The position numbers and the translations under genes are program-made. The notes beneath the pieces were generated by a model. It did no database searches and had not been told where the DNA came from. It was given only the letters and a program-made list of their open reading frames with translations. Shown piece by piece: positions 2,020-44,879 of a stretch of DNA of 64,000 nt. Positions within the stretch are counted from its first letter, which is position 1, and each line of letters begins with the position of its first letter. Source of the DNA: a virus; the UHGV virus genome UHGV-0203063; one strand, written 5' to 3'.

Positions 2020-3159
2020 TTAAATGTTATCAAAATTAAATTTTTTTATTTTCTTTTTTAATAACTCTTTTGGATTTAAAAAAGTGGTATACGAATTCAT
2101 TACAAAGCCATCAAGACAACAAACGGCACCGTTTTCATCTTCAAGACACAAATATCCCGAATCTTTAAGTCCTTCTAAATATATATAATTTAATGTATAT
2201 TTATGATTATTTAAAATAATAGTTTTGCTTAGTTTGTTATAGTTAAATCTTTTCATTATAGAAATTACAGTACGATTTTCTTTGTTTTTGTCTTTGAATT
2301 CCACGTCAGGTATACGCGAAAACAAACAGGTCAACTGTTTTACGAGATGACTATTTGGATTTGATAATTCAGCAACAAATTCACTATGATTATTGTATAG
2401 TTCTTGTATTAATCTTTGCATAGGATTTAATTGTTTATACAAAAGCTCAAAAAAGACATCTTTAAGAGATTCGTCAAACAAATCTTGTATTTCAAAAGCA
2501 AAAGAATACCCTTCGTCATCATTTTCAAAGTTATCGCCAAAAATACTAAAATTCAAAATCCACTTATCTTTGTTTCGACAATCTATTAATTTACACGATA
2601 TTTCGTCCATTTCATAGTTCAATTTAGAAAACTTCGCGGCCCACAAAATACCTTGTCTATTTCGAATTCCGTTTGAATTTTTATATGGTGTAAAAAGTAT
2701 TAAAACGTCTGGATTTTCTTCGTCTGGGAAAATGATAGTGTTTGATAATAAACGCGCGTTTATTATCGTTTTGAATTTTTCTAAATTTTGACGATGATGT
2801 ATTGCCAAAGGAGAAATTTCTTCCCATTCGGGGTTATAATAATTCCCACCTGGAGTAGAATTATAACCCTTTTTCATAGAGTTGAACTTTTTTATAAATT
2901 CTTTCTCTCTGTTGTCGGCTTCTTTTTCAGGACATTCACAAAGTATTTCAACTTCAAAATTATCGAAACCCTTTTGTTTAATAGCTTCTGACCATTTGTT
3001 TTCGTTTGTTAAATAGTTCTTCCCGTTCTTACCCGCCCTCTCTTTTAATGTTTTTTTGGTTTGTCCGACATAGGACCCATCACTATCATAATATCTATAA
3101 ATAAATTTATTTCCTTTTGCTGGTCTAAGTTCCATAATTTCCTGTTTGTTCATAATCAT
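2020..3159 (-). CDS. GIY-YIG endonuclease domain fused to an unknown C-terminal domain
   Basis: FIYRYY..DGSYVGQT, conserved R, E (NREKEFIKKFNS) and GYN.T.GG in the first ~105 aa; AT-rich. Confidence 0.75.
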   Translation of the reverse strand: MIMNKQEIMELRPAKGNKFIYRYYDSDGSYVGQTKKTLKERAGKNGKNYLTNENKWSEAIKQKGFDNFEVEILCECPEKEADNREKEFIKKFNSMKKGYNSTPGGNYYNPEWEEISPLAIHHRQNLEKFKTIINARLLSNTIIFPDEENPDVLILFTPYKNSNGIRNRQGILWAAKFSKLNYEMDEISCKLIDCRNKDKWILNFSIFGDNFENDDEGYSFAFEIQDLFDESLKDVFFELLYKQLNPMQRLIQELYNNHSEFVAELSNPNSHLVKQLTCLFSRIPDVEFKDKNKENRTVISIMKRFNYNKLSKTIILNNHKYTLNYIYLEGLKDSGYLCLEDENGAVCCLDGFVMNSYTTFLNPKELLKKKIKKFNFDNI

Positions 3160-3541: not shown

Positions 3542-3994
3542 TTATTCTACGAGATCATAATCTTCATACTGCCAGAGTTCAAAATCAACAGACTCGCTAT
3601 AATAACCATTTGACCTGCCATACCAACGAATTGTATCATACCCTTTGTTTGTGGTTATTTTATAAAAAGTCCAAGTATAACTTTCGTCCCATTTGCCTAA
3701 TGGAGGATTGTTGTCAGCATTTACTTCTTCTAATTTACACCATTTGCAATCTGTATATATGTCGTTATTATTTTCTTCGCTATCAACATCTTCGATCCAT
3801 ACGCCTTCGCAACAATCTTGATGATGACACATCACAATTATAAAACCATCTTTACACCAAAATCTCACTCGGTCGCTCTCCTTTTTTAAACCATCAACTT
3901 TAACGAGCCCACTGGCGAGATGGGCGTTGATGTTGTTAAGTTCCTCAACCGATAAATGGTATGAACTTGCGTAATATTCGTCTATACACTTCAT
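3542..3994 (-). CDS. conserved phage protein of unknown function
   Basis: motifs H.QDCCE.V.IEDV and TWTFYKI.T.KG....RWYG.SNGYYSESV typical of a widespread phage family. Confidence 0.75.
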   Translation of the reverse strand: MKCIDEYYASSYHLSVEELNNINAHLASGLVKVDGLKKESDRVRFWCKDGFIIVMCHHQDCCEGVWIEDVDSEENNNDIYTDCKWCKLEEVNADNNPPLGKWDESYTWTFYKITTNKGYDTIRWYGRSNGYYSESVDFELWQYEDYDLVE

Positions 3995-4013
3995 GATATA
4001 TTCTCCTCTTGTT

Positions 4014-4619
4014 TTATATCCATTTTACGACCGTATCGCCCGTAAAACCCTTTTCCCAGACGTACCAAGCATAAGCGACCGCCGAACCACCGCCAGCTTT
4101 CATTCTTTCGAACTCGCCATTCTTTGCGCATAAAACGCGTTGAGAAAAGACATAAATCTTTTTCGGCGGATATTTAGAAAAGAGTTCGTTGTAACGAGTT
4201 TTACCTTCGAGGAATGTGAGTTTGAGGAACATAAACACCTTATGTCCTTCGGGAACTAATTCCAATCCTTTTAAAGCAAACTCTTTCGCATACTTATAAG
4301 GCGGATTGGTTAAAATATCTCCATTAAATATTTCGTTACATTCAAAGAAATCAACGCCGCCTTTGCCATATCCTCGATCGATTAAATCCGTTGAGGTTAC
4401 ATTGTATCCAAAATCTTCGAGTCTTTTAGATAAGTCTCCTTGCCCGCAAGCACACTCCCAAATATTTTTGCAAGTCAACTCACCAGTCGCATAAAGTTTA
4501 TCTATCGCAATTGATTCAGTTGCGTAAAAATCGTTCTCTTCGCGTTCTTTGTCAGTGTGGTTGCTTGCTCCGAGAGTTTTATAAATTGAGTTTGAGTTTC
4601 CTATCCAATCGTTTGCCAT
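4014..4619 (-). CDS. orphan amino (N6-adenine/N4-cytosine) DNA methyltransferase
   Basis: ENDFYAT, SAM-binding IWECACGQG, catalytic DILTNPPY. Confidence 0.85.
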   Translation of the reverse strand: MANDWIGNSNSIYKTLGASNHTDKEREENDFYATESIAIDKLYATGELTCKNIWECACGQGDLSKRLEDFGYNVTSTDLIDRGYGKGGVDFFECNEIFNGDILTNPPYKYAKEFALKGLELVPEGHKVFMFLKLTFLEGKTRYNELFSKYPPKKIYVFSQRVLCAKNGEFERMKAGGGSAVAYAWYVWEKGFTGDTVVKWI

Positions 4620-5281
4620 TATTCTACCTCCAAAATCATCGCCTGTAATTCTTCAATTCTCTTCTCATGAGCGGCGATTGCTCTTTCTTGCTTTAAGCCT
4701 TTCATCTCTTTTTTAACGCGCTTTATCTCGTCCTTTAAATCCGCGTTCCACTTTTTCTTAATCAGCGTGTAAATCACCGCGACCGAATCGCTTTCATCGT
4801 CCGTCAAATCGCCCGTTTTCAGCCCATAATGGGTGCAAACCGCTTTTTTGATGTCGGTCTTCGTCGGCTTCGGCGTTTCATCGGTTTTAAAAAGCGCTTT
4901 TACCGAGACCGCGTGAACGCCCACTTCGTCGTAAAAATCAACCCCATCCACCTTCGCAACCGCGATGTCGAGAGCCGCGTGCGCTTTCGCAAGCGTTTGG
5001 AGCGTCGCGATGGTCGTAAATCGACCTGCCTGCGCAGGCATCGCCTCTTTGACAATCATCAACAAATTGCCGTATTTCTTGACTGCCGAGGTCAGGTATT
5101 CTTTAAGCTTCGTATAAAGCGTCGCGACAGGCGTTTCATCGGTGTGTGAGACTTCGATTTTGTCAGTTCGGACGATTGATTTTTGAGAAATGTCGTAAAT
5201 CGAGACGCCTGTTTTGTAAAGCGCGAGGTCGAAGCTGATTATGTAATCGATTTCCGATAACGGTTTCTGGAACTTAATCAT
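4619..5281 (-). CDS. RuvC-like Holliday junction resolvase
   Basis: ISFDLALYKTGVSI (first acidic motif), IVKE, C-terminal DDESDSVAV. Confidence 0.7.
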   Translation of the reverse strand: MIKFQKPLSEIDYIISFDLALYKTGVSIYDISQKSIVRTDKIEVSHTDETPVATLYTKLKEYLTSAVKKYGNLLMIVKEAMPAQAGRFTTIATLQTLAKAHAALDIAVAKVDGVDFYDEVGVHAVSVKALFKTDETPKPTKTDIKKAVCTHYGLKTGDLTDDESDSVAVIYTLIKKKWNADLKDEIKRVKKEMKGLKQERAIAAHEKRIEELQAMILEVE

Positions 5282-5690
5282 CTTCTTTCTCCGCGAGCAA
5301 CAACGTCGCGGTTATCCTCATATTATATGGTTGCCGCTCGATTTTTACAAACTGCGCGGCTTCTGCCAAAACCGCGTCACGCAAGCAAGACTCGGTTTTG
5401 TCTAATGGCAGCGGGCCGATCGCCGCGATTCTTTTGATTTTTATAATTTTAGCGTTTTGTACATTGATTGCAACGGGCGTTAGCGGGTCGTGGGCGATTT
5501 GTTTTTTGAGAAGTTCGTTTTCTTGCTCCAAACTTTTAATCCGTAAATCGTTGATTTTCAAATCGCCGACAAAATTGTCTCTTTGCTCAGCGACGAAATC
5601 GTATTGCTCAGCGATAATATCGTAATCGCTCTTCGGCACGCCGCCAAAAAGACCTAAAAACCATTTTTTGAATTTACTCGGTTGTTTCAT
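5274..5690 (-). CDS. hypothetical protein
   Basis: 138 aa, overlaps both neighbours. Confidence 0.7.
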   Translation of the reverse strand: MKQPSKFKKWFLGLFGGVPKSDYDIIAEQYDFVAEQRDNFVGDLKINDLRIKSLEQENELLKKQIAHDPLTPVAINVQNAKIIKIKRIAAIGPLPLDKTESCLRDAVLAEAAQFVKIERQPYNMRITATLLLAEKEDD

Positions 5691-6144
5691 TTTTATATTT
5701 CTCCAAAATAACCAGCGCTTCTTCTTGCTGCTTTAATGTTTTACGATCCTCTTCAATAGATTCTTTTAAATTTTTAACGAATTTATCAAAGGGTTCTACT
5801 ATATGATGATACGGCCAATCGTCATCTTCGTAATGTGATACAAAATAACCTCTTATTTTTTGGGGAACATCTGCTTCTCTAAATCCATCAAAACATATGT
5901 TTGCGTCTTTATGAGTATCTTTGTAAACTAAAAGGTCATCTCTTGAATTTATTTCAAATACAAAATATGAATTAGATTTTTCTGGTAAATAGAAATTACC
6001 GATGGGCATAAGATTACTTTTCTGATGTGCCTCATATAGTTCTACTTTTTCTCTATCTTTACTAGTACAATTTCCATCATCTGACTGATAAGTAATTTTT
6101 GTAATTGCAGTTTCAACTATTTTTGTATTTTTTATTTCTTTCAT
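5674..6144 (-). CDS. hypothetical protein, Y.SDDG paralog family
   Basis: MKEIK...YQSDDG...YE, shared with the ORFs at 17168 and 17530. Confidence 0.7.
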   Translation of the reverse strand: MKEIKNTKIVETAITKITYQSDDGNCTSKDREKVELYEAHQKSNLMPIGNFYLPEKSNSYFVFEINSRDDLLVYKDTHKDANICFDGFREADVPQKIRGYFVSHYEDDDWPYHHIVEPFDKFVKNLKESIEEDRKTLKQQEEALVILEKYKNETTE

Positions 6145-18150: not shown

Positions 18151-19155
18151 TTAAATCTCAAAATCGTCGTCGTCAATCGCTTCATCGATCGCTTGCAATG
18201 CCGTAAATTTCTTCATCTGAATAAAGTGTTTATCCATTCCCTTCCATTCCATTTTGACGTGATAAGTATCAAACTCATCTTGCGTGGAAAGGTTATAATA
18301 ACAACATAAATTCTTACAATCTTCGGGCTGATCGGGGTTGTTCGCACTAAACGGGCACCAAGCGCACAAAATGCTCGGCGACGGTTTCCACTCCTTATTT
18401 TCGATTTTCGCAAAAAGCTTGTCGATTTTTGTAAGCCCGCGTTTTATCCCACCTTTTGTCAACGCCGACTGCCAAACGCCGTCTTCGCCTGCGAAAGGCA
18501 AATCATAACAACACTCGAATTCCGCGTCTTCTCCGTAAACCTTTTGCTGCGATAAAACGTAAATCACGAATTGTAACGGCGTCGCTAAATCCTCTTTTCT
18601 GAATTCCTTGTCTTTGGTTTTTATATCGTGAATTACGTATTTGTTCTCCCCTTTAACTTTAAGCAAACGGTCGATATAACCGAAAAAGGTGTAATTATCG
18701 TTATACTTAAACTCGAACGGAACTTCACAACCGACGATTTCAAGTTCGGGGTGATCTTGCATATACCATTCCAAACGATACATTCCAATCGCCGCGAAGT
18801 ATTTTGCCTTTTCTGCGTAAGTTTTCCCTGCGCGGCTTGGCTTTACCCACGCTTCGGGATATTTCTTGGCGAGAAGATTAGCTCCGAGAATATCCTCTTT
18901 TTTCTTCCCATTTTCTTGGGTGTGTAATTCGATATTCCAAAAATCTTCGGTAAGTTTTTCGTATGGAATTTCTTTGCCCTCTTTTATGCAATTTCCGATT
19001 GTTTCGAGGATGTAATGGCATAAATTGCCGTATTCCATTGTTAAAGCACTGTCTTTCGGGAAATGCTTTTGCTCGTATTTTAAATAGTAAGCAAACGGGC
19101 AACTCTCCATTTGGTTTAATCTGCTGTATGAAAATCTTGTTGGTTTTTTAGTCAT
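18151..19155 (-). CDS. PD-(D/E)XK RecB/Cas4-like exonuclease
   Basis: FSYSRL...CP, GNLCH.ILE, E..F, G.IDR, DIKT, Q..IY, C-terminal C.WC...C. Confidence 0.85.
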   Translation of the reverse strand: MTKKPTRFSYSRLNQMESCPFAYYLKYEQKHFPKDSALTMEYGNLCHYILETIGNCIKEGKEIPYEKLTEDFWNIELHTQENGKKKEDILGANLLAKKYPEAWVKPSRAGKTYAEKAKYFAAIGMYRLEWYMQDHPELEIVGCEVPFEFKYNDNYTFFGYIDRLLKVKGENKYVIHDIKTKDKEFRKEDLATPLQFVIYVLSQQKVYGEDAEFECCYDLPFAGEDGVWQSALTKGGIKRGLTKIDKLFAKIENKEWKPSPSILCAWCPFSANNPDQPEDCKNLCCYYNLSTQDEFDTYHVKMEWKGMDKHFIQMKKFTALQAIDEAIDDDDFEI

Positions 19156-20314
19156 ATTCTTTATGTTCCTTTATTAATTCATCATAATCAATATAATCAC
19201 TTATATCGAAATCCGATACCCATATTTTTAAGATATCTATAACATTGCAATCGTATTTGATGCGCAATAGATTGATATCGTTATCTTTACAAAATTTATT
19301 TTTTATCTCATCTCTCTTTTTTGTTTTCTCAAATCCAGATTTGCCACCAAATAGTTCTATTGGTTTATAATGTTGGGCGCCATCATATTCAATACATAAA
19401 TTCATAGATGGTATATAAAAATCAAAACGTAATAACTTTTTATTTTTACATCCTTCAAACGTCTTCTCCATGCAAAACTCAATTTTGTTTTCTGTTAAAA
19501 AATCTTTGATTTTTATTGCGTTTTTTGAATAATTGCAGATTGCACATCCGTATCCGCTAATTATTTCGTGTGGGGTTACCATCCACTCGGAACCGCACTT
19601 CTTGCACCTATGTAATGTTTTAACTTCTGTCCCCGCATAATTTCCAATTAACTCCACATTTGGGTTTATTAATGCAATTTTATTTTCATATTGTTCTGCG
19701 GTATATCTTGTTTTAATGCCGCGTTTTTGTGCCATACATTTGGGACAACTACTACCATTTAAAATATTTCGCGGTACGCCATTCCACTCAGTCCCACATA
19801 TCGTACATTTGTGTTTATAACTGCCTTTTAATTTTATAATTTCTGAGTTGTCTATATATTCAATCCAAGTTTTTAAATTTTGTAATCTACTTTTATACTC
19901 ATTTGCCGTTATAGGTAACCTACCCTTACATTTAGGGCACCCCGCGCCTTTTAACGCACCTTTTGGGGTTATGTTCCACTCATACGAGCAAACGTTACAT
20001 CTATGAAGAATCGGCTTGTATATATTTTGATATTCTTCGAGGGGGGTTATATTTATATTTTTCTTTTTTAATAATTTTAAGTATCCATCATTCCCCAAAC
20101 TTTGTTTTTTCGAATTTTTCAAAATAGCACACTTAGGACATCCAGACCCAGATAGAATATGTATCGGAGACGTTTCCCAAACGTTATCACACACCAGACA
20201 TTTGTGTTTTATTGATTTAGAACAATTGGTAAAATTTTCAAGAGGTTTAATTTGTCGATTATTCCTATTTAATTCATCTGTATAATTGTCCAAATTCCAT
20301 TTTTTTTGTGCCAT
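19148..20314 (-). CDS. free-standing putative homing endonuclease (four zinc-ribbon repeats plus Vsr/DUF2726-like nuclease domain)
   Basis: four HxC..C...W...P...L.G..CP.C repeats; LRFDFYIP...IEYDGAQHY...RD..KN.FC....I.LLRI. Confidence 0.8.
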   Translation of the reverse strand: MAQKKWNLDNYTDELNRNNRQIKPLENFTNCSKSIKHKCLVCDNVWETSPIHILSGSGCPKCAILKNSKKQSLGNDGYLKLLKKKNINITPLEEYQNIYKPILHRCNVCSYEWNITPKGALKGAGCPKCKGRLPITANEYKSRLQNLKTWIEYIDNSEIIKLKGSYKHKCTICGTEWNGVPRNILNGSSCPKCMAQKRGIKTRYTAEQYENKIALINPNVELIGNYAGTEVKTLHRCKKCGSEWMVTPHEIISGYGCAICNYSKNAIKIKDFLTENKIEFCMEKTFEGCKNKKLLRFDFYIPSMNLCIEYDGAQHYKPIELFGGKSGFEKTKKRDEIKNKFCKDNDINLLRIKYDCNVIDILKIWVSDFDISDYIDYDELIKEHKEYD

Positions 20315-34519: not shown

Positions 34520-37500
34520 TTAATTATTGTGTCTTGTGAGCTTCGCCTTGGCACGCGCCTCGGAAAGCAACTTATCCATATCGTAATCCTTTGTCGGATA
34601 AACGTTCATGGTGAGATTGTCGATGTATTGACCCTCTTCATAAGTCGTGTTTCCAGCATTACCAGTGAGAGCTTTTTGGTTAAGCGAACTAAGCTGCGCG
34701 ACCAATGTCGGAGCGACTTCGCCGAGCGCCCAAACGTTTCGGGTTATGTCCGCAGGGACGATGCCCGTCTTCGAAGGAAGCGCGGTAAGCGTGCCGCCAG
34801 GGGTAATGACCGCTTCGGTCCCGAGTTCGTTGATAAGGGTTTGCCCGCCTTGGAAGGAGGTTGTGCCTATGGCGTTTTTCTTGGGCTCATACCCTCGAGC
34901 CTCGGTCACCCTCATCGTACCATCGCCAGCAATATCTAAAACTTTATCACCAATAACCCAAGTGCCCTCAATTTTTTTGTCGATTGAATATAACAATTCA
35001 GATAGTTCCTTTTTGGTGAGGCCAAGTGTTCGCTCTATATCCTTACTGTTCCAAAGGGCATACTTAAAGAACAATTCATCCGAAAATGAACTATCAACTT
35101 CATAAGTTACACTCCTTTTCGTATCTGAAGCCGCAAGGTAGCTACCCAATTGTTCATCAGTAGCACCATAACTGTTTATAGCTTTATTGCGAGCCTCGAC
35201 GTATTTATTGTGCAACCCTTCGTATTCATCTAATTTTGTTCTGTAGTCCTTAATGTCAGTCGCACTGTCTAACGCTTTATAAGCCTCTTCGACAGCCGCT
35301 CTTGCTTCAACTGCATCCTTAATCGCCTCTTGGGCCAAACTCTCTTTTGACTCCATAAGTCCAGCAATCGAATTCGCCGTTTTGATATTCCCTTCTTCGT
35401 CCAGAATCCAATTACCTTGCTCATCCTTCATTTGATAAGTGCCTTTCGCTGCGTTGTAATAAATTTTATTATTGCTAAACGCGGCAGCCAAAGCGGAAAC
35501 AATCTCGGCATTTCCAGCCAAGTTCTTCTCGGACCAAGTATCAAGACTTGTTTGCATCGCCGAAAGTTGTTTGTTCTCTTCGAGGTTACTCAAAATACTC
35601 TTTTGTAATTCGAGTTGATCGATTTGAACCTGCAAATCTTCTTGTTGTTTTTGAGTATTTAACGAAATCAAATTTTCTTGAGCCGTTTGAACCGCAGTTT
35701 CATCACTCTCGTAGACAAACCCGACACCTGCGCGATAAACTCTTACACGCTCTTTTTTGGCGTTTTCAAGCGCTTCTTGAGCCTTCATCAACTCGAGCTC
35801 TTTTTTGCGCTCTTCGTTGACCTGCGACAAAGCATCTTTTTGCTCGGTGAGATTTTCGATTTGCCTATCAAGAAGTTTCTGTTGAGCTTCAATTGCCTTC
35901 TGAAGTAATGGATCGGTCCATTCGATAACCTGTTCGAAGTCCATATAATCCGTCACGGCATCAACAATTGCCTGCCCTACGTCGCCACCCATTTGACGCG
36001 CCTTTTCGAGGATTGCATCCAGTGTACTTTGATCTCCGAGTAATTGGTCTACATCATAAGTAAGTCCACCTGCGACCAGCCCTCCGCTTTCTTTAAGTGT
36101 TTTTTTAAAGTCTTTGGCAAAGTCTTTGCTTGTCATTTCGGCATTTAGAAGTGAGTTAACGTACGCCTCTTTCTGCTCGTTAACGGTTTTATCAACCAAC
36201 ACGCCAGCCAAAACGTCGTTGCCTTGACGCAAGTATTTAAGCAGTTGTGGATAATTCGACAAAATCTTTTCGAAGTTTTCTGCCGTAATTTCGCCATTAT
36301 CTGCAATGTCGGTAAAGAACGTGCTGAATCCCGAATAATATGAACGAACGTCTGCGCCAGACATAAGACCAATCGATGTGGTCAAATCGGGGAAGACTTT
36401 CGCCATCGCCCGAGCTTGCTCGACCGTTAAATTCCACGCCGAAGCAAATTGTTCTATTCTTTCGGGGTCTGCCGCGTAAACAAGTTCTTTGAGTTTATCC
36501 ACGCTTACGTTCAACGCCGCCGCGACATTGTTAAATAACGTCGCATTTTCATCGTCGCCATAATGATCAAGAAGATATCTTAACTTCTCGTAATCTATTC
36601 CTTGTGCCGCAAGCCCGACGAATTGCAGCCTTTCCGCCAAATTCGAATAAGCGTTCGCTAATTCACCTATAGTTTGAGTGTCGCCTTTCGTCAAAACTGC
36701 CATCTCGGAGTTGGACAAAATCGCCGACTTAATCATCGGGAGATATTCATCTTTAATCGCGCCCGCTGCGTCATAAACCGCATAACCTTGATCTCGCATG
36801 GCTTCTGCGACTTTTCCTATAGCACCTTCGATGGTTAAACCTGATAATTGGTCAGTGGTCAAGGAAGACAAATTAGAAGCGAGATAACCCACTTCTATTT
36901 GTTTTTCCATAACTTCTCGGTCCATAGAGGCGAGTTTTGCAATATTTTTCTGAACTTTGTTAATATACTCGTCGAGTTTATTAACGCCTTGTTGAAGATA
37001 TTCTTTAGCCCTTTTATTGTCAACGGTTTCTGCCGACTGCTTTATTTCTTCTCGCTTACTTTTAGCCTTCTCGAGTCTTTCCTCTAAGGAGCCTGAAAAG
37101 CGATAATTGGTGAGTTGAGACTCCACCATATCTTGAATAGCCGAGGCTGTCAACCCACCTGCAATACCACCAGTTATTGCACCTGCAACACCACCAATAA
37201 TAGCACCTACGGGACCACCTGCAGAACCTGCGGTCGCACCAATAGCGGTGCCACCAGCAATACCAGTACCTATAAGACTAGCATATAGCCACGCTTTATC
37301 TCGCGTAGACATTTCCAGTTTAACGACATCGGTACTAAGAATATCATGACGATCTTTTTCTTGAGATTTTCTGGTTTGTTCAAGTTCTGCTTTTGCTGTT
37401 GCTAATTTTAGAGCTTTGACGGTTTCTTTACGTTCTTCCACTGAACCACTAAGCATTTTTCCTTGCAGCTTGGTCATAGAATCTACATACGTGGTGCCTT

Positions 37501-39527
37501 CAGGTAAGCCAAGAGATTCCGCCAAAACATCGCTCATTTCTTTGAAATTTTTACCGTCATATTCCGCAAATTGATTAGTTAATTGATCTATATACGATTG
37601 AATTTGTTCATAGCCCTTAGAATCTAATGTTCCACTTTCCACAACACCTTCGATTTGACTCGTTGAAGATGCAATTTGTTCAAGGAATTTAAGGCTTTCT
37701 TTGGCGTCCTCAACACGTTGTTTCATTTGCAACTCGCCAAGATGTTCGTTTGTTGCCCTGGCGTTTGCTATAGCGGCACCCAACTGTTGCCCAAGTGCTG
37801 CGCCAGTAGAGCCACCTAAAAATCCCCCTACCGCTGCTAACTGAGAGGTATAAAACAAACGCCTAGTTTTATCTGGTCTCGTTTCCTCAACTGTTTGATT
37901 CGTATCATTTCCCGCCCATTCTGTAAAAGTTTTATTTAACCAGTCGTTTTTAGAACCAACTTCACGCTGCGTGGAGAGTTCGGTGATTACCGCAGACAAC
38001 TCTCCCATGGAAGCTGCTGAAACACGACTTAAAATATTATTTGCAATCGCCGCTTTTTGAGTTTGTCCAACTTGAGATAAGATATTTTGATCTGTAACCT
38101 GATTTGTCGTAATCTTACCATTTGCGTCGGTATAATACCAATTAGACCCTTTTCTCATTATGTTTTGAGTGGTCCCATCGGCATTGGTTAATTGCATAAC
38201 TTTCGGGTTGCCAAAACTAAGGAATCTGTTACGCTGGCGATAACCCGTTACCGTTGACTCAATGGTGGGCTGAGAATCACCACTCGCGCTTCCACTAAGA
38301 GGTTTTCCATCAGCACCTACTAACTTAGATGGGGCGGTTCCATTTGGCGTTTTTCCCGTCCCAATATTTTCAACAACACGTTTTAAGTCGTTTACGGCCT
38401 GCGTAGTTTTATCAATCGCGGCGACTTGATTATTACTGTTGGTTTTATTCCCACCAAATATTTTGTTTAATAACCTAGACGATAACCCCACTTTATTTCC
38501 AGTCATAACATTTCCGAATTCATCGGTTTCTATGCCGTTTTCGCCAAACTTAACCGAATGGAACTTCCCTTTTTCGACAACACTGCCGAAGAACCCTTTC
38601 ATATAACCAATACCTTGTGTTACACTGTTACCCAAGAAACCCATTATCTTCTTAGATTGAAGAGTTGTAAGGAATGTCAATATGTAAGGCCCATATTTAT
38701 TAACAAAATTAACAGCCCATGTTGCTATATCGGTTAACCCTTTAATAATTCCGCTTCCCTTAACCGACTGCGTAAATCCTTCCCAAGCATTTTGGAGTTT
38801 TTTCGTAGAAGCCTCGATAGAATCCAAATACGCCGAGTATTTTTCATCAGCCGTTCCTGCGGCATTTGCCGATTCTTCGGTGAGTTCTTTTACTCGATTC
38901 CAGTTTTCCATAAGTACGAGGAAGTTTTCTCTCATTCTCGTACCGCCGAAAGCAGTTGCAATAGCGTTTTTCGTTACCGTATCAAACGTCGACCACTTCG
39001 AATTAACATCATCAAGAACGTCGGTTATACTACGCATTTCCTTCGCAGAAGAACGAATTTTTATACCGAGCTTCGAAAGAACCTTTTCGATGTCGTTGAT
39101 GTTCTCGGTTGTTTCGCCGTTATCATTAAGCCCCATTTGGGTAAATACACCCGCTTTTACGTTGCCATAACGAGCGAGAATTGACTTCATCGCGTGACCG
39201 ACCGTATCCATCGATTGTTGGGTTACTTCACCGACAACCGAAACGGAACCGATAAGTTCATCCATCGACATCCCTGCGAGTTTTGCAGAAGTTGCCGATT
39301 TTTGGAGCGCTGTCGCGATTCCACCAGCGGAAACTGCGGCGAGTTGGTCAACTTTTGTTAATTTATCGACAACGTTAATTGCGTCCTCAGCTGCAAGATT
39401 GAAAGCTTTTAATGCACTCGTTAAAGCGGTTGTCGCTTCGGAAGCCGAAATCATACCAAGTTTACTAAGTTTAGTCGAAGCTGAAACTAATGCTTCCAAT
39501 TGATCTTCCGCTTCGTAACCTTGTCTG
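34520..39527 (-). CDS. tape measure protein, exon 2
   Basis: RQGYEAEDQLEALVSASTKLS; TP901-type core (VVDKLTKVD, KSILARY, AFGGTRMRENF); Gly-rich hydrophobic segments; C-terminal GT......INELG.E.V motif. Confidence 0.9.
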
Positions 39528-40698
39528 TAATTGTGTTACTTTTAAATTTAGTTTATCATTTAAAAGATTCTATATTTGTGTCTAAGTTATACTCATAATA
39601 CATATAATTTTGAACTTTTAATATTTCAAAAGCCCGTTTCTTTATGTTTAAAAGTATCTCGTCACTAGGCAAAATATCTGTGTTAGAAAGTATTTTAAAT
39701 AACTTATAATTGTGGTTTGTTAAAAAGGTTATTCTCTTATTTTCTTTTCTAATAAAGTTTTCCCTTGTTTCATTACCTAATTTGACAGTAAGATCGTGCC
39801 CGCTTCCATCATATTCGCAACATATGTTGTCCGACAACAAAATGTCTATATGATAAATCCAGATAGGATAATTCAATTCTCCTTTGTATAAATCACACAA
39901 ATATCTTTGTTGCCTGCTTGTCGCCGTTACATCGTTCCCATTTTCATATAATGTCCGATTACACTTTTCACGTAATTCATTACTTTGAAGAGTATAACTA
40001 CAACCATAACGACTCTGCATAGTCTGAACACCTTTGGCCCTAATTTCTGCTGATTCAAGAGGGTTTTCACAACCATACTTCTTAAGATTATTTTTAATTA
40101 CCGATTCATGAATTTCTGGAATTCTCAAAGTAGAACGATATCCGTATTTTTCTAAAGCATTTTCAGGAATTTTGTATTTCAAACATTTTAAACAACAGTT
40201 TTTCCCACATTCAATAGATTCTATATATCTTCGGTATGATTTTTCTACTATTTCTCCACAATATTCGCATATCGTATGAATTTTTATTCCAGATGTTTTT
40301 GGTAAATCGGAAACTTTTACAAAAATTCGTTGTCCGCATTTTTGGACATCGTAACCAAGATTTTTATAATAATCAAAATTATATTGATTTATAACCATTT
40401 TAACTTCGCTTTCTATTATCACAAATATTTCACCTCCTTTTATAGAATTTTCTCTGAGTTTCCCCAGAAGTTCAGAATATATCTTTCGCATAGATTTCTC
40501 TATGTAGAGCTCCCCATTATCCACACTCGTGGAACATATTCGTTGAACCTTCCTCTATTCGAGGCTTGGTTGCTGATTTCCCAATCCATATATTTTTAAC
40601 TATCACACTTACGCATATTTCATCGTTATGTTGTAGCTATATGGCTCTAAGGGAGTCCCAGCAATTAAAGGAGTTTATACTGACCCAGACTTTTGTTA
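39528..40698 (-). ncRNA. group I self-splicing intron (IA-like, with P7.1), 1171 nt
   Basis: P1 ACUGGCU/GGUCAGU with U-G at the 5' site; P10 CAGAC/GUCUG; P4 UUGCUG/CAGCAA; P6 AACC/GGUU; P7 GAAUAU/AUAUUC; P8 CAUAGA-GAAA-UCUAUG; P9 CUGGG-GAAA-CUCAG; removal restores the frame as WLRQGY. Confidence 0.92.
39556..40422 (-). CDS. intron-encoded putative homing endonuclease
   Basis: GTG start 8 nt after AGGAGGTG; CEYCG..C.KC zinc motif, three (K/R)YG repeats, C-terminal IDI....CCEYDGSGHD nuclease motif. Confidence 0.8.
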   Translation of the reverse strand: MIIESEVKMVINQYNFDYYKNLGYDVQKCGQRIFVKVSDLPKTSGIKIHTICEYCGEIVEKSYRRYIESIECGKNCCLKCLKYKIPENALEKYGYRSTLRIPEIHESVIKNNLKKYGCENPLESAEIRAKGVQTMQSRYGCSYTLQSNELREKCNRTLYENGNDVTATSRQQRYLCDLYKGELNYPIWIYHIDILLSDNICCEYDGSGHDLTVKLGNETRENFIRKENKRITFLTNHNYKLFKILSNTDILPSDEILLNIKKRAFEILKVQNYMYYEYNLDTNIESFK

Positions 40699-43600
40699 AG
40701 CCAGTCATTCATTCCTTGCGCAATTTCAGTTGTTGTCGCACCAAGAGTTTTTCCTAATTCGGTGTAACTCCTCATCAAACTTCTTGCTTGCTCTTCGTTA
40801 TATCCCCCGACGATTCTGATATTCGTCATCGCCGCGTCTAACTCTTTCGTATACTGAATTACCTTCTGTATATCCTGCGGAATCTTGTTTAAAACCTTCG
40901 CAGCAATTCCGAAGTCTGCAATACGCATGGTCGCACGGCGAATATCGTTCGCCATCATATCCCAGATGGAAGTTGCGCCTTTTACGCTCACAAGATTCTT
41001 TTGCGCGTTTGATTGTTTCTTAAGAGCCGCCGTTGAATCGATTTGTGCCTTTGTTGCCGCCTGTTCAACGGAAACTCGCTTAATCAACTCACTATTATTT
41101 TCAGTTAATTGATCAGATTCATTTTGGAGTGCAACAATTGCACCATCAATCGCTTCACGGTGTTTACCAGACGACAAAGCAGCTTGTCTTTGGAGTTTGT
41201 CAACTTGAGATTCAAGGCTTATAAGCTTATTAACATACTGTTGATATTCTCTTATATCTTGCTTTTGTTGTTTATCAGTCGTTGCTTGTTCCTTTCCACC
41301 ATCAGGTATGCCTGTTCTGGTTCTCGTCGTCTCATCATCTATGGTACCATTTGTAGCTTCGGCCCATTTTTGAAACGCTATCCAATTTAAATTCTTATAA
41401 GCCGCACCGAAATTATTAGTGTTACCTCCACCGAATACTGGTGATAACAAATTTTTTATATCAGTAGTATCTTGGTGAATTCCTTTTGTTTCATTTAAAA
41501 TAGCCCCAACACCTTGTTGCGGTTGGTATTTAGCCCCAAACGTATCTGTGAGAATCTCATCCATAGCGGTACGCCCAGCTTTGCTTAACCCGCCAGAACT
41601 CTTTTTATAAGACGGAACTTTAGTTAATATGCCTATCAACTCCGCTTGAGCCGCCTGCATATCACCATTCTTCCACTTTTCAATCCATGATTGCAACCCG
41701 CCAGGACCATAATCAGCAAAAACTTTATCATTTAAATATTTATAAGTTCTACCGATTGTTTTTCCTTCAAAGTCAGTTGTTATAGAAGTTGGCTTAGTCT
41801 TAGACAAATCAGCGACTTCTGAACTTGTAGCCTGTACTTTTAAAATATCTCCCGCCGAATTGTAATAATATTGGTAATTAGCACCACCATTGCCGTTAAT
41901 ACCCGCCCCGAGATATTGCCAACTAACCGTATACAACTTCTGTTTTAAGTCAGTTTCTTGTTTAGTAGCCGCAAGAAGATCTTCGTTGGCTTGATTTAAT
42001 TCATCGATTTTTTGTGTCGTTTCATTAATCGTACTCCCGATTGACATCCCTTTCTGTTTACCCTCGGTTATACCTTTAAACATTTCGGGAGATAATCCCA
42101 TCGAATCCTCATTTCTTTCAGCTGCTTCCTGGGCTTTAATATATTCGGGCTTAGCCGTTTCCGCGTATAAAAATTTAAGACGATTTTCGAGTTCGGTATC
42201 GACTAATTTTGTAAATTCCTGCTCTTTTTGAACACGAATGTCGTTTTGTTTCTTTAGCTCTTCTTTACGTTTAGTATCTTGCTCGTCGAGATAAATGTCA
42301 TACTGTGTGGCAAGGCTTTCCATTCCAGTATCGTCAAATAACCCAAATAAACTTTCTCGTGCTTTGCCCCCGATGCCGTGTTTACCAGACGTCGGAAGAT
42401 AAAGACTCTCAACGGGTGCTTCGTTAATCGCTCTTAATTGTTTGTCTAATAAAGACTTTTCTTTAATAAAACCTTGTTCATCGACACCTTCTAAAACTTG
42501 TTCTAGTTCAATTCCCGCCTGATCCGCGACTTTTTGAACTTTATCTAAATAATCTGAGAATATTCCAATCTTTTCAGAAGAAACGCCAAGCGTATCGGCC
42601 ATTTCGGTCAATTTTTGTTTATAAAAATCAATTTTAGAAATATCATCGTCGACTTGACTCTCGGTCAACTTGTCTATCGCTTCTGCCGATAAAGTTCTAC
42701 CGTAAATATCTCTATTCCTTTGTTTATCAAATTCGGGCATTTGGGATTCTTGAGCAACCCCAAAAGTCGATCCCATAAGCAATCCGTATAAAGTACCAGG
42801 CGCTACATACCCGCCAGGGGCACCAACATAACTGATCTTACGAGCAAATTCTTTAGAAAAAACATCTTTGCTTTTTTGGTCTGCTATTTCTGTAAAAGTG
42901 TCAAAAGTATTAAGAAGATTCCCTTCTTCTGCAATAAATGTATCAAGCTGTTTTCTAATCCATTGGACTTGATCTTCTAATGGCAAACCTTGAGCTTGTG
43001 AAGTAAAACCTTCATACAAACCCTTGCTACGCATATACCTATCATAAACCTCAGGAGATTTGCGAGCAAGATATGTCCTTGCAAGTTCTTCTCCTGTATA
43101 GGGTTGAGTATCGGCAGGCAGATCTTTATTTATGTCTTCTGCAACTTTACTAAATATATTAGTGGTTCTTTGATAGAAATCAACAAGTCGGGTCATTCTG
43201 TCTGCAAGAGTCTTTATACCTTTGTCGTCAAACAAGGGTTTGTCAGTATAACCAAGTTTCATTCTTTCCACACCCGACTCTATCCAAGCCTGCTGCTTCT
43301 TCTCCTCGAGTTCCCAAACATCAGGCGCATACATATCGTATTTGTTGGGCTTCGGTTTTTCATCTTCATTTAAACCACTTAAATATCCAGCGGTAGTTTT
43401 ATCCAATTCTCTATCAAAAATATCGGTTATTTTACTGGAAACTTCAGGGATCGCCTCTTTGATCGCATCAACAAATGCTTTACTGTAATATTTATCTTCG
43501 CCAAAAAATAATCTACTTGCAAGTTCTTCCGTATCTGCCTGCGCCTTCATGCCTTCTTTAATTGCGCTTATAAGGGCATCTTTAGTTATCTCACCCGAAG

Positions 43601-44879
43601 CGAATTTTCCGCTTAAAGTGCTTAACGACATACCTCCATAAGTTTTAAAATCTTTTTGAGTGGGTTGGTACATGCTGCGAAAAGCTTCTTTTAAAAGTTT
43701 TGCATTTTCTGTATTATACCATGGCTTCCCATCGGTTTCACCAAACAAACTACCAAGAAATTGCTGTCTTTGTTCTGGTTGTAAACTATCAAGCAAAGAT
43801 TTGACTTCCTCTACAGTCTGCCCAACCCATTGCCCAATAGGTTTCCCATTATAATACATCGCTTCACGTACTTCGTTTTTGTATGTAAACGGACCTTTTT
43901 CAGCAACACCTTGAACTGAACCAGGAATTTTAACATCGGTAAAAGATTTGCGTCCCTCAAGAACATCAATTAAGTCCGAAATGAGTTTTACACCTTCTCG
44001 ATAAGAACCAACATTTATATCATAAACGCCAGGAAGTGTATTCGCATATTTCATTCTACCTGCATTTATCGGTAAATGGGCAACTTTACTAGTGATAGGT
44101 AAATTTGCGCCTTCTTGTGCTCTAATTAAGGTTGCATTTACAACACTTTGTATTAGATTGTGCATCGCACTAAATGAAGCAGTAGTTTTGTAATCGCCTA
44201 TTTTACCTTCTTTTGCTTTTGTCCAGTCGGTAGAGCCAGATACCACGTATAACTTCCCATCTTTCTTAAATGCCATAGAACGAGCGGTTTCAGTTTCCCC
44301 GCCCACCATTCCCGCAGAAATTTTCATTTTCTGAAAATCTTGAGCGTTTTTAATAACTTTGCGGAAATTTTTCATTGTATCCGTAGAAGTTCTACCAACT
44401 AAGCCCTTTAATTTTTCATTGGTTTGGGGGTCAATTTGCATTTGCTTCATGATTTGGTCAGCAGCTTTTACGGCATCGTTTAAGTCTACCAAGCCTTTAT
44501 CCGTTAATTCTAATATTTTATGCAATTCATCCCCGATAGGCGCTTTACGTTCACTGTAATATTGAAACTTTTTCAAATCTTTAAGCTTACCCTCAATTTG
44601 CCGTTTTAGATCACCTGAGGCTGTTTTTAACTGTGTTTCAAGCGCTTTTTTTTCGCTCTCAAAATCTTTATATCCAGTTTCACGCAAATGGGCAAGTTGG
44701 GTCGCGCTTATCATCACTGCGTTATTTTCTTTCAAATATTTTCTAAGCTCTTCATTAACGGCTTCATATATATGTTGTCCACCAGTTTCGTTTAATATAG
44801 ATTGAAAACTCGTAAATTTCCCAGCTTCGATATCTTTTATAATATGTTCAACATTTACCTCTATTTTTTTATTAGCCAT
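40699..44879 (-). CDS. tape measure protein, exon 1 (with N-terminal nuclease-like domain)
   Basis: ends ELDAAMTNIRIVGG...LGATTTEIAQGMNDWL, the start of the TMP core; spliced CDS is 4181+5008=9189 nt (3062 aa). Confidence 0.9.

Follow-up and report, generated by a model that had tools for sequence, protein, structure and literature searches.

Group I introns are taken, almost without exception, to end in guanosine (omega-G), and the handful of published cases that do not have been interpreted as decay or host dependence. A tape measure protein gene in the phage genome UHGV-0203063 raises the question of whether a phage intron ends in adenosine instead, and of what would then place its 3' splice site. 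In the 64,000-nucleotide stretch that we analyzed (the window, to which all coordinates refer unless a locus is named), exon 1 of this gene (40699..44879, minus strand) ends in N-D-W-L after U40699 and matches the intronless relative L001 upstream of that site; without splicing, its reading frame stops at 40665. Exon 2 (34520..39527, minus strand) matches PF10145 (E 3e-23) and TIGR01760 (E 7e-33). The gene is interrupted at W-L/R-Q-G, between 40699 and 39527, by a 1171-nt group I intron (39528..40698, minus strand) delimited with Rfam family RF00028 and by junction comparison, and the predicted spliced product is 3062 aa long. As read from the window sequence, base 39528, the last of the intron, is A.

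The RF00028 match spans the whole model (E 1e-9), and its score, 44.4 bits, falls short of the gathering value of 50; the window contains no Rfam match at the gathering threshold, and an E-value scan of the whole window also missed the intron. P1, together with the guide pentamer that forms P10 (40679..40705, minus strand), is defined by pairing and compensatory changes. The last 7 nt of the 5' exon (40705-40699) pair with 40685-40679 and end in the wobble U40699.G40685, which recurs in 10/10 related introns that end in A and lack an open reading frame (ORF-less omega-A introns), with compensatory changes at two of the seven P1 pairs. The guide pentamer (40690-40686) pairs at 5/5 positions with the first five bases of exon 2 (39523..39527, minus strand), a P10 partner identified by guide pairing and covariation that includes a rival G at 39525; the complement of the pentamer occurs once within 200 nt around the junction, with one further copy far inside the intron ORF. 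An earlier note on this DNA, made from the sequence alone, had drawn the same pairing of the guide with both exons, U-G wobble and five perfect pairs included.

The catalytic core P3-P8 occupies 40470..40673 (minus strand), with the P7 strands at 40543-40537 and 40479-40474. The G-binding pair of P7, G40541-C40475, is intact, as the earlier note had also stated, and is invariant in the ten ORF-less omega-A introns, in which P3, P4, P6 and P7 occur in group I order with 100% of the cells in these helices paired. The 5' strand of P9.0 (G40473, A40472) and the P9 hairpin lie at 40452..40473 (minus strand), and the 3' strand of P9.0 (39530-39529) lies directly before omega-A in a conserved 3' tail (39528..39543, minus strand). 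We read P9.0 as two pairs, G40473.U39529 and A40472-U39530; the earlier proposal was correct in that P9.0 places omega at 39528, but its register is one base off, and the additional ACUU/AAGU pairing that it included is absent from that position in the L036, L039 and L156 lineages. An insertion between P7 and P3 is hairpin-like by eye; an extra hairpin at that point would be a trait of subgroup IA (IA2). On the predicted anatomy, with its P1 wobble, core order, P7 G-C pair beside a bulge, P10 and P9.0, the element is a group I intron. It is not of the canonical omega-G type, its last base being A39528, and a terminal A in an otherwise intact core would make it one of the omega-A kind represented by hexacoral ND5-717 and the Coxiella intron. 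Such introns are still classed as group I in the available text of PMC8146996.

Several junctions at the 3' end are in frame, so frame alone cannot fix the splice site; the predicted site is fixed by intronless alleles and covariation. L001, which is 95% identical, reads N-D-W-L-R-Q-G-Y, and with U40699 as the 5' site only a cut after A39528 restores this sequence. The claim that no other junction restores W-L-R-Q-G thus holds given U40699, although other in-frame junctions exist. Covariation was scored in ten distinct ORF-less omega-A introns (set A2) over P1, P10, P3, P4, P6, P6a, P7 and P9.0: 99.7% of 390 cells pair, both sides have changed at 11 of 39 pairs, and structures slid along the sequence pair at only 34-47%. 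None of 500 shuffles matched this set, a test that relatedness among the introns inflates. The first P10 pair, which adjoins the junction, is A-U in six of the ten introns, G-C in three and G.U in one. A junction after A39528 is the one that the comparative data support, and annotation that forces a terminal G will misplace phage intron ends.

Tape-measure alignment searches yielded 125 loci (42 viral, 80 metagenome, which are the best 80 of 95, and 3 genome), a count of loci with duplicates rather than of independent genomes, since some contigs are present in two collections. The site is intronless in 92 loci, holds an omega-A intron in 30 and an omega-G intron in two (L117 and L123), and is not covered in one. 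Intronless alleles read W/F-x-R, and the Arg is kept in 92/92. Among the same-site intron loci from these protein searches, terminal A therefore occurs in 30/32, duplicates included. The earlier note had named homologous introns of related phages as a check on its claim that the intron ends at A39528; the 30 loci with A against two with G, the intronless L001 and the P10 covariation together confirm that claim. The 28 complete omega-A introns, the window's included, represent 19 distinct cores with identities down to 65% and range from 304 to 2030 nt, carrying the same ORF, other ORFs or none; the ORF-less ones measure 304-339 nt and the omega-G relatives at this site 325-359 nt. In omega-A carriers, exon 2 evolves under purifying selection, with dN/dS of 0.006-0.125 in eight pairs of carriers and one further pair saturated. 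At one locus, L086 (1-1887), all that the contig contains of the intron is its 3' part, fused to sequence that looks unrelated, and this contig is possibly chimeric.

Pattern scans extended the census but yielded mostly chance hits, loci outside the family making up 4/9, 1/8 (L073) and 114 of at least 120 of what they returned. A search directed at tails with a terminal G returned at least 120 loci and, among them, six further omega-G introns at this site; being conditioned on G, it gives no frequency of omega-G. The 3' tail of the window intron aligns at every position with the tails of L117 and the L329 family, which have G in place of the window's A. The same-site omega-G intron of L352 (1323-1700, reverse strand) has an extra base in P4, possibly a sign of decay or an assembly error.

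The intron also encodes a putative homing endonuclease of 288 aa (39556..40422, minus strand), which has a GTG start behind a strong ribosome-binding site and sits beyond P9. It matches the homing-endonuclease family PHROG 12131 (E 2.6e-38) and Pfam DUF7487; no credible match was found among solved structures or in NCBIfam. The putative enzyme is under purifying selection (dN/dS 0.08-0.11 against three relatives) and is 48% identical to the ORF of the omega-G relative L117. The ORF is swapped among relatives, and cores that are 95-98% identical lie in exons that are only 55-72% alike at the protein level. These near-identical cores suggest recent movement of the intron between unlike phages, and the element likely still spreads by homing.

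Group I splicing begins when GTP bound in P7 attacks the U.G pair at the 5' splice site. Our preferred reading, to which we assign a probability of about 0.72, is that this intron splices exactly after A39528 by GTP-started self-splicing, with slower but accurate ligation placed by P10 and P9.0. From the conserved anatomy, the first step would be ordinary: free GTP would bind the intact P7 G-C pair and cut at the P1 U.G. For the second step, the complete five-pair P10, stacked on P1, and the two-pair P9.0 would position the 3' site and keep the phosphate that follows A39528 adjacent to the end of the 5' exon, while the A would lie within or beside the G pocket and lack the hydrogen bonds that a G makes there. 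Ligation would probably be slower than with omega-G and accurate enough for a 3062-aa protein. Such an outcome is known from coral ND5-717, in which, in the available text of PMC6545197, exons are perfectly ligated in vivo in the absence of a terminal G and splicing is less efficient than that of an omega-G intron of the same genome.

A counter-point to ligation at omega-A is the in-frame G three nucleotides downstream. Its use as omega-G (G39525), which the earlier note had left as an option, would give an in-frame product without the Arg; the G is present in all family members, and in the available text of PMC13521648 the alternative 3' sites of a large IStron group I mutant library all ended in G and lay no more than 10 nt from the normal site. 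That library also showed an effect of the 3' exon on efficiency more than on accuracy. Against use of G39525, the register that it defines has no P10 pair and no P9.0 pair in the window, and its first P10 position is unpaired in 29/29 introns tested. The three bases before that junction covary with the guide, L060 and L156 differ only at the silent third base, and the G of omega-G relatives stands in the column of A39528. The Arg is moreover invariant in the intronless alleles, which explains G39525 as the middle base of an Arg codon; we regard its use as quite improbable. That A39528 is a sequencing error or private mutation has next to no probability, because the same A occurs in the 30 related loci, drawn from three collections and including introns 93% identical to that of the window, and because an error could not explain a family in which core identity falls to 65%. 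A-to-I editing of the last base was also weighed and dropped, since its neighboring bases vary from lineage to lineage and no support for it was seen.

A different objection accepts the cut after A39528 but makes it depend on a host or phage protein, a chaperone or maturase-like factor, as proposed for hexacoral ND5. The change from omega-G to omega-A has been read as dependence on host factors (available text of PMC4040992), and the 64-kb window is part of a phage genome, which leaves room for a phage-encoded helper. Nevertheless, ten distinct ORF-less omega-A copies keep the full core and the ORF differs among relatives, so that a maturase acting in cis is not needed; this argument disfavors an intron-encoded helper and reaches that helper only. 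The near-identical cores in unlike exons, which suggest recent transfer between phages, also count against dependence on a helper, and a PHROGs scan of 28 window proteins, most of which had no match, brought up no obvious RNA-chaperone family. Dependence on a host or phage helper, a possibility raised in the earlier note, we consider unlikely but the least unlikely of the alternatives. It is also conceivable that no useful splicing occurs and that the tape measure is made as two proteins, or that the phages are defective, since each half is a long open reading frame and an in-frame TTG lies at 39499 in exon 2. However, the split falls where the PF10145 match begins (profile position 27), compensatory changes preserve the core and splice-site helices even where the ORF is absent, and the exons are under purifying selection, which together make this very unlikely.

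Self-splicing after A39528 would put weight on P10, and here the omega-A and omega-G introns of the same site differ. P10 is complete, with 5/5 pairs, in 28/28 complete omega-A introns, and P9.0 has at least two pairs in 27 of these 28. In six same-site omega-G introns (L117, L329, L351, L352, L398 and L400) the first P10 position is mismatched, and five of the six have a third P9.0 pair, compared with one of the 28 omega-A introns; in a seventh, L397, P10 has two of five pairs by eye. A full five-pair P10 in all 28 complete omega-A introns and in none of seven omega-G relatives is new here and comes from few independent lineages, six of the seven omega-G introns belonging to the L117/L329 group. 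In the tree, one clade (96/95) unites the omega-G cores of L117 and three members of the L329 family, and the omega-A introns fall in two (98/97 and 97/98), the union of which is compatible with the data (p-AU 0.46). The pattern fits a trade in which omega-G introns can afford a loose P10 and omega-A introns cannot. A long P10 is not peculiar to omega-A, since omega-G introns at other sites also have one (eight pairs in L032, L087 and L088; five in L153). Natural A and G forms at one site with contrasting P10 make the role of omega-G testable in small ribozymes, and whether the 3' splice site can be chosen by P10 and P9.0 in place of omega-G is a question that compact ribozymes can answer directly.

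A more far-reaching proposal is that the terminal G has been traded for a complete P10 throughout a widespread mobile phage family, that splicing is protein-free, and that the omega-A state has more than one origin in the tape-measure gene and is kept rather than tolerated. We hold this only tentatively and think it doubtful as a whole. If true, omega-A would recur as a phage intron design and would not point to host capture, and the state may be kept by limiting 3' hydrolysis and circle formation or by removing competition with GTP. For omega-A, prevention of 3' hydrolysis and circularization has been proposed (available text of PMC8146996).

Omega-A introns are already on record in Coxiella and in hexacoral ND5-717, and the window intron adds to a known rare kind. 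The Coxiella intron, Cbu.L1917, reportedly has a terminal A and splices less efficiently. The earlier note had named terminal A from some coral mitochondrial introns only, which overstates its rarity, because the Coxiella burnetii 23S rRNA intron is a bacterial precedent that lacks omega-G and is described as self-splicing (Raghavan et al. 2007, J Bacteriol 189:6572, as cited in the available text of PMC3428280). The two are alike as group I introns without a terminal G, but the Coxiella intron lies in a cellular rRNA gene, whereas that of the window interrupts a protein gene of a phage, encloses a conserved endonuclease gene and shares its site with omega-G relatives. With hexacoral ND5-717 the window intron shares omega-A in an essential host gene, accurate ligation having been shown in vivo for the coral; ND5-717 is obligatory, vertically inherited and carries mitochondrial genes in P8 (available text of PMC8146996, PMC6545197 and PMC4040992), whereas the window intron is optional (92 intronless alleles) and apparently mobile, with its ORF beyond P9. 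Bacillus cereus-group prophages have IA-type group I introns at several tape-measure sites (TMP-IVS1/2/3), which resemble the window intron in that P1 and P10 are adapted to the site and endonuclease genes are gained and lost; no terminal-A case was found among them in the available text of PMC2504315. Introns of Bacillus phage SP-15 and Streptococcus phage Str-PAP-1 are about 77% identical to that of the window across P4-P7, half of the core; the P7 sequence of Str-PAP-1 is canonical, and in the tree this intron lies apart from the same-site clades. No cultured phage was found to have the window intron; in the phage collection, tape-measure matches stayed below 40% identity at best. By title and abstract, a literature search that covered few subscription papers returned no omega-A phage intron, and none appears in the available portions of a phage intron paper and reviews (PMC11878797, PMC3984707, PMC8393795, PMC10964413, PMC9223047, PMC11835236, PMC4990558) or of PMC2588497.

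The third P7 pair varies more than the Rfam consensus suggests. It is A40539-U40477 in the window and C-G in the consensus, a difference that the earlier note does not mention, and the variant was considered as a required compensation for omega-A. This idea was dropped: the pair is C-G in six, A-U in three and G-C in one of the ten ORF-less omega-A introns, so the A-U change is not required. In the omega-A introns of L079 (2690-2999), L080 and L149 (913-2527), P7 differs at two pairs, G-C standing at pair 3 and C-G at pair 4, and the neighboring base of the J8/7 strand is altered as well. Among the matches listed, pair 3 departs from the consensus and is still paired, as U-A or A-U, in other phage group I introns: L174, L185, L199, L207, L213, L229, L233, L235, L236, L252, L253, L255, L272 and L214.

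Group I introns also occur at about six tape-measure sites in L026-L158, sometimes two in one gene. At other tape-measure sites of the same phages, the best or tied junction ends in G in 16 of 22 introns and in A in one (L119), while automatic boundary calling gave no usable junction for five. L119 (about 3577-5342) belongs to another intron family, at the site A-G/T-R-Q, that has an apparent terminal A and 5-6 P10 pairs; its other members are in L042 (about 3580-5700) and L046 (about 3580-5705), with junctions read by eye. In L032, L087 and L088 the A-G/T-R-Q site holds an unrelated intron, which ends in G. Omega-A may have arisen a second time within the tape-measure gene.

Apart from this intron, the window gave no group I core in a motif scan. 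Two more endonuclease genes, of the HNH/zinc-finger and GIY-YIG families, lie at 19148-20314 and 2020-3159; the scan detected no group I core beside them, and they are probably free-standing. TAG is the stop in none of the 44 long minus-strand frames of the window. In-frame TAG occurs at Gln positions in L003/L033, L062 and L046 and in the intron ORF of L006/L039, which suggests stop-codon reassignment in some relatives; the intron ORF of L039 is 396 aa long when TAG is read as Gln.
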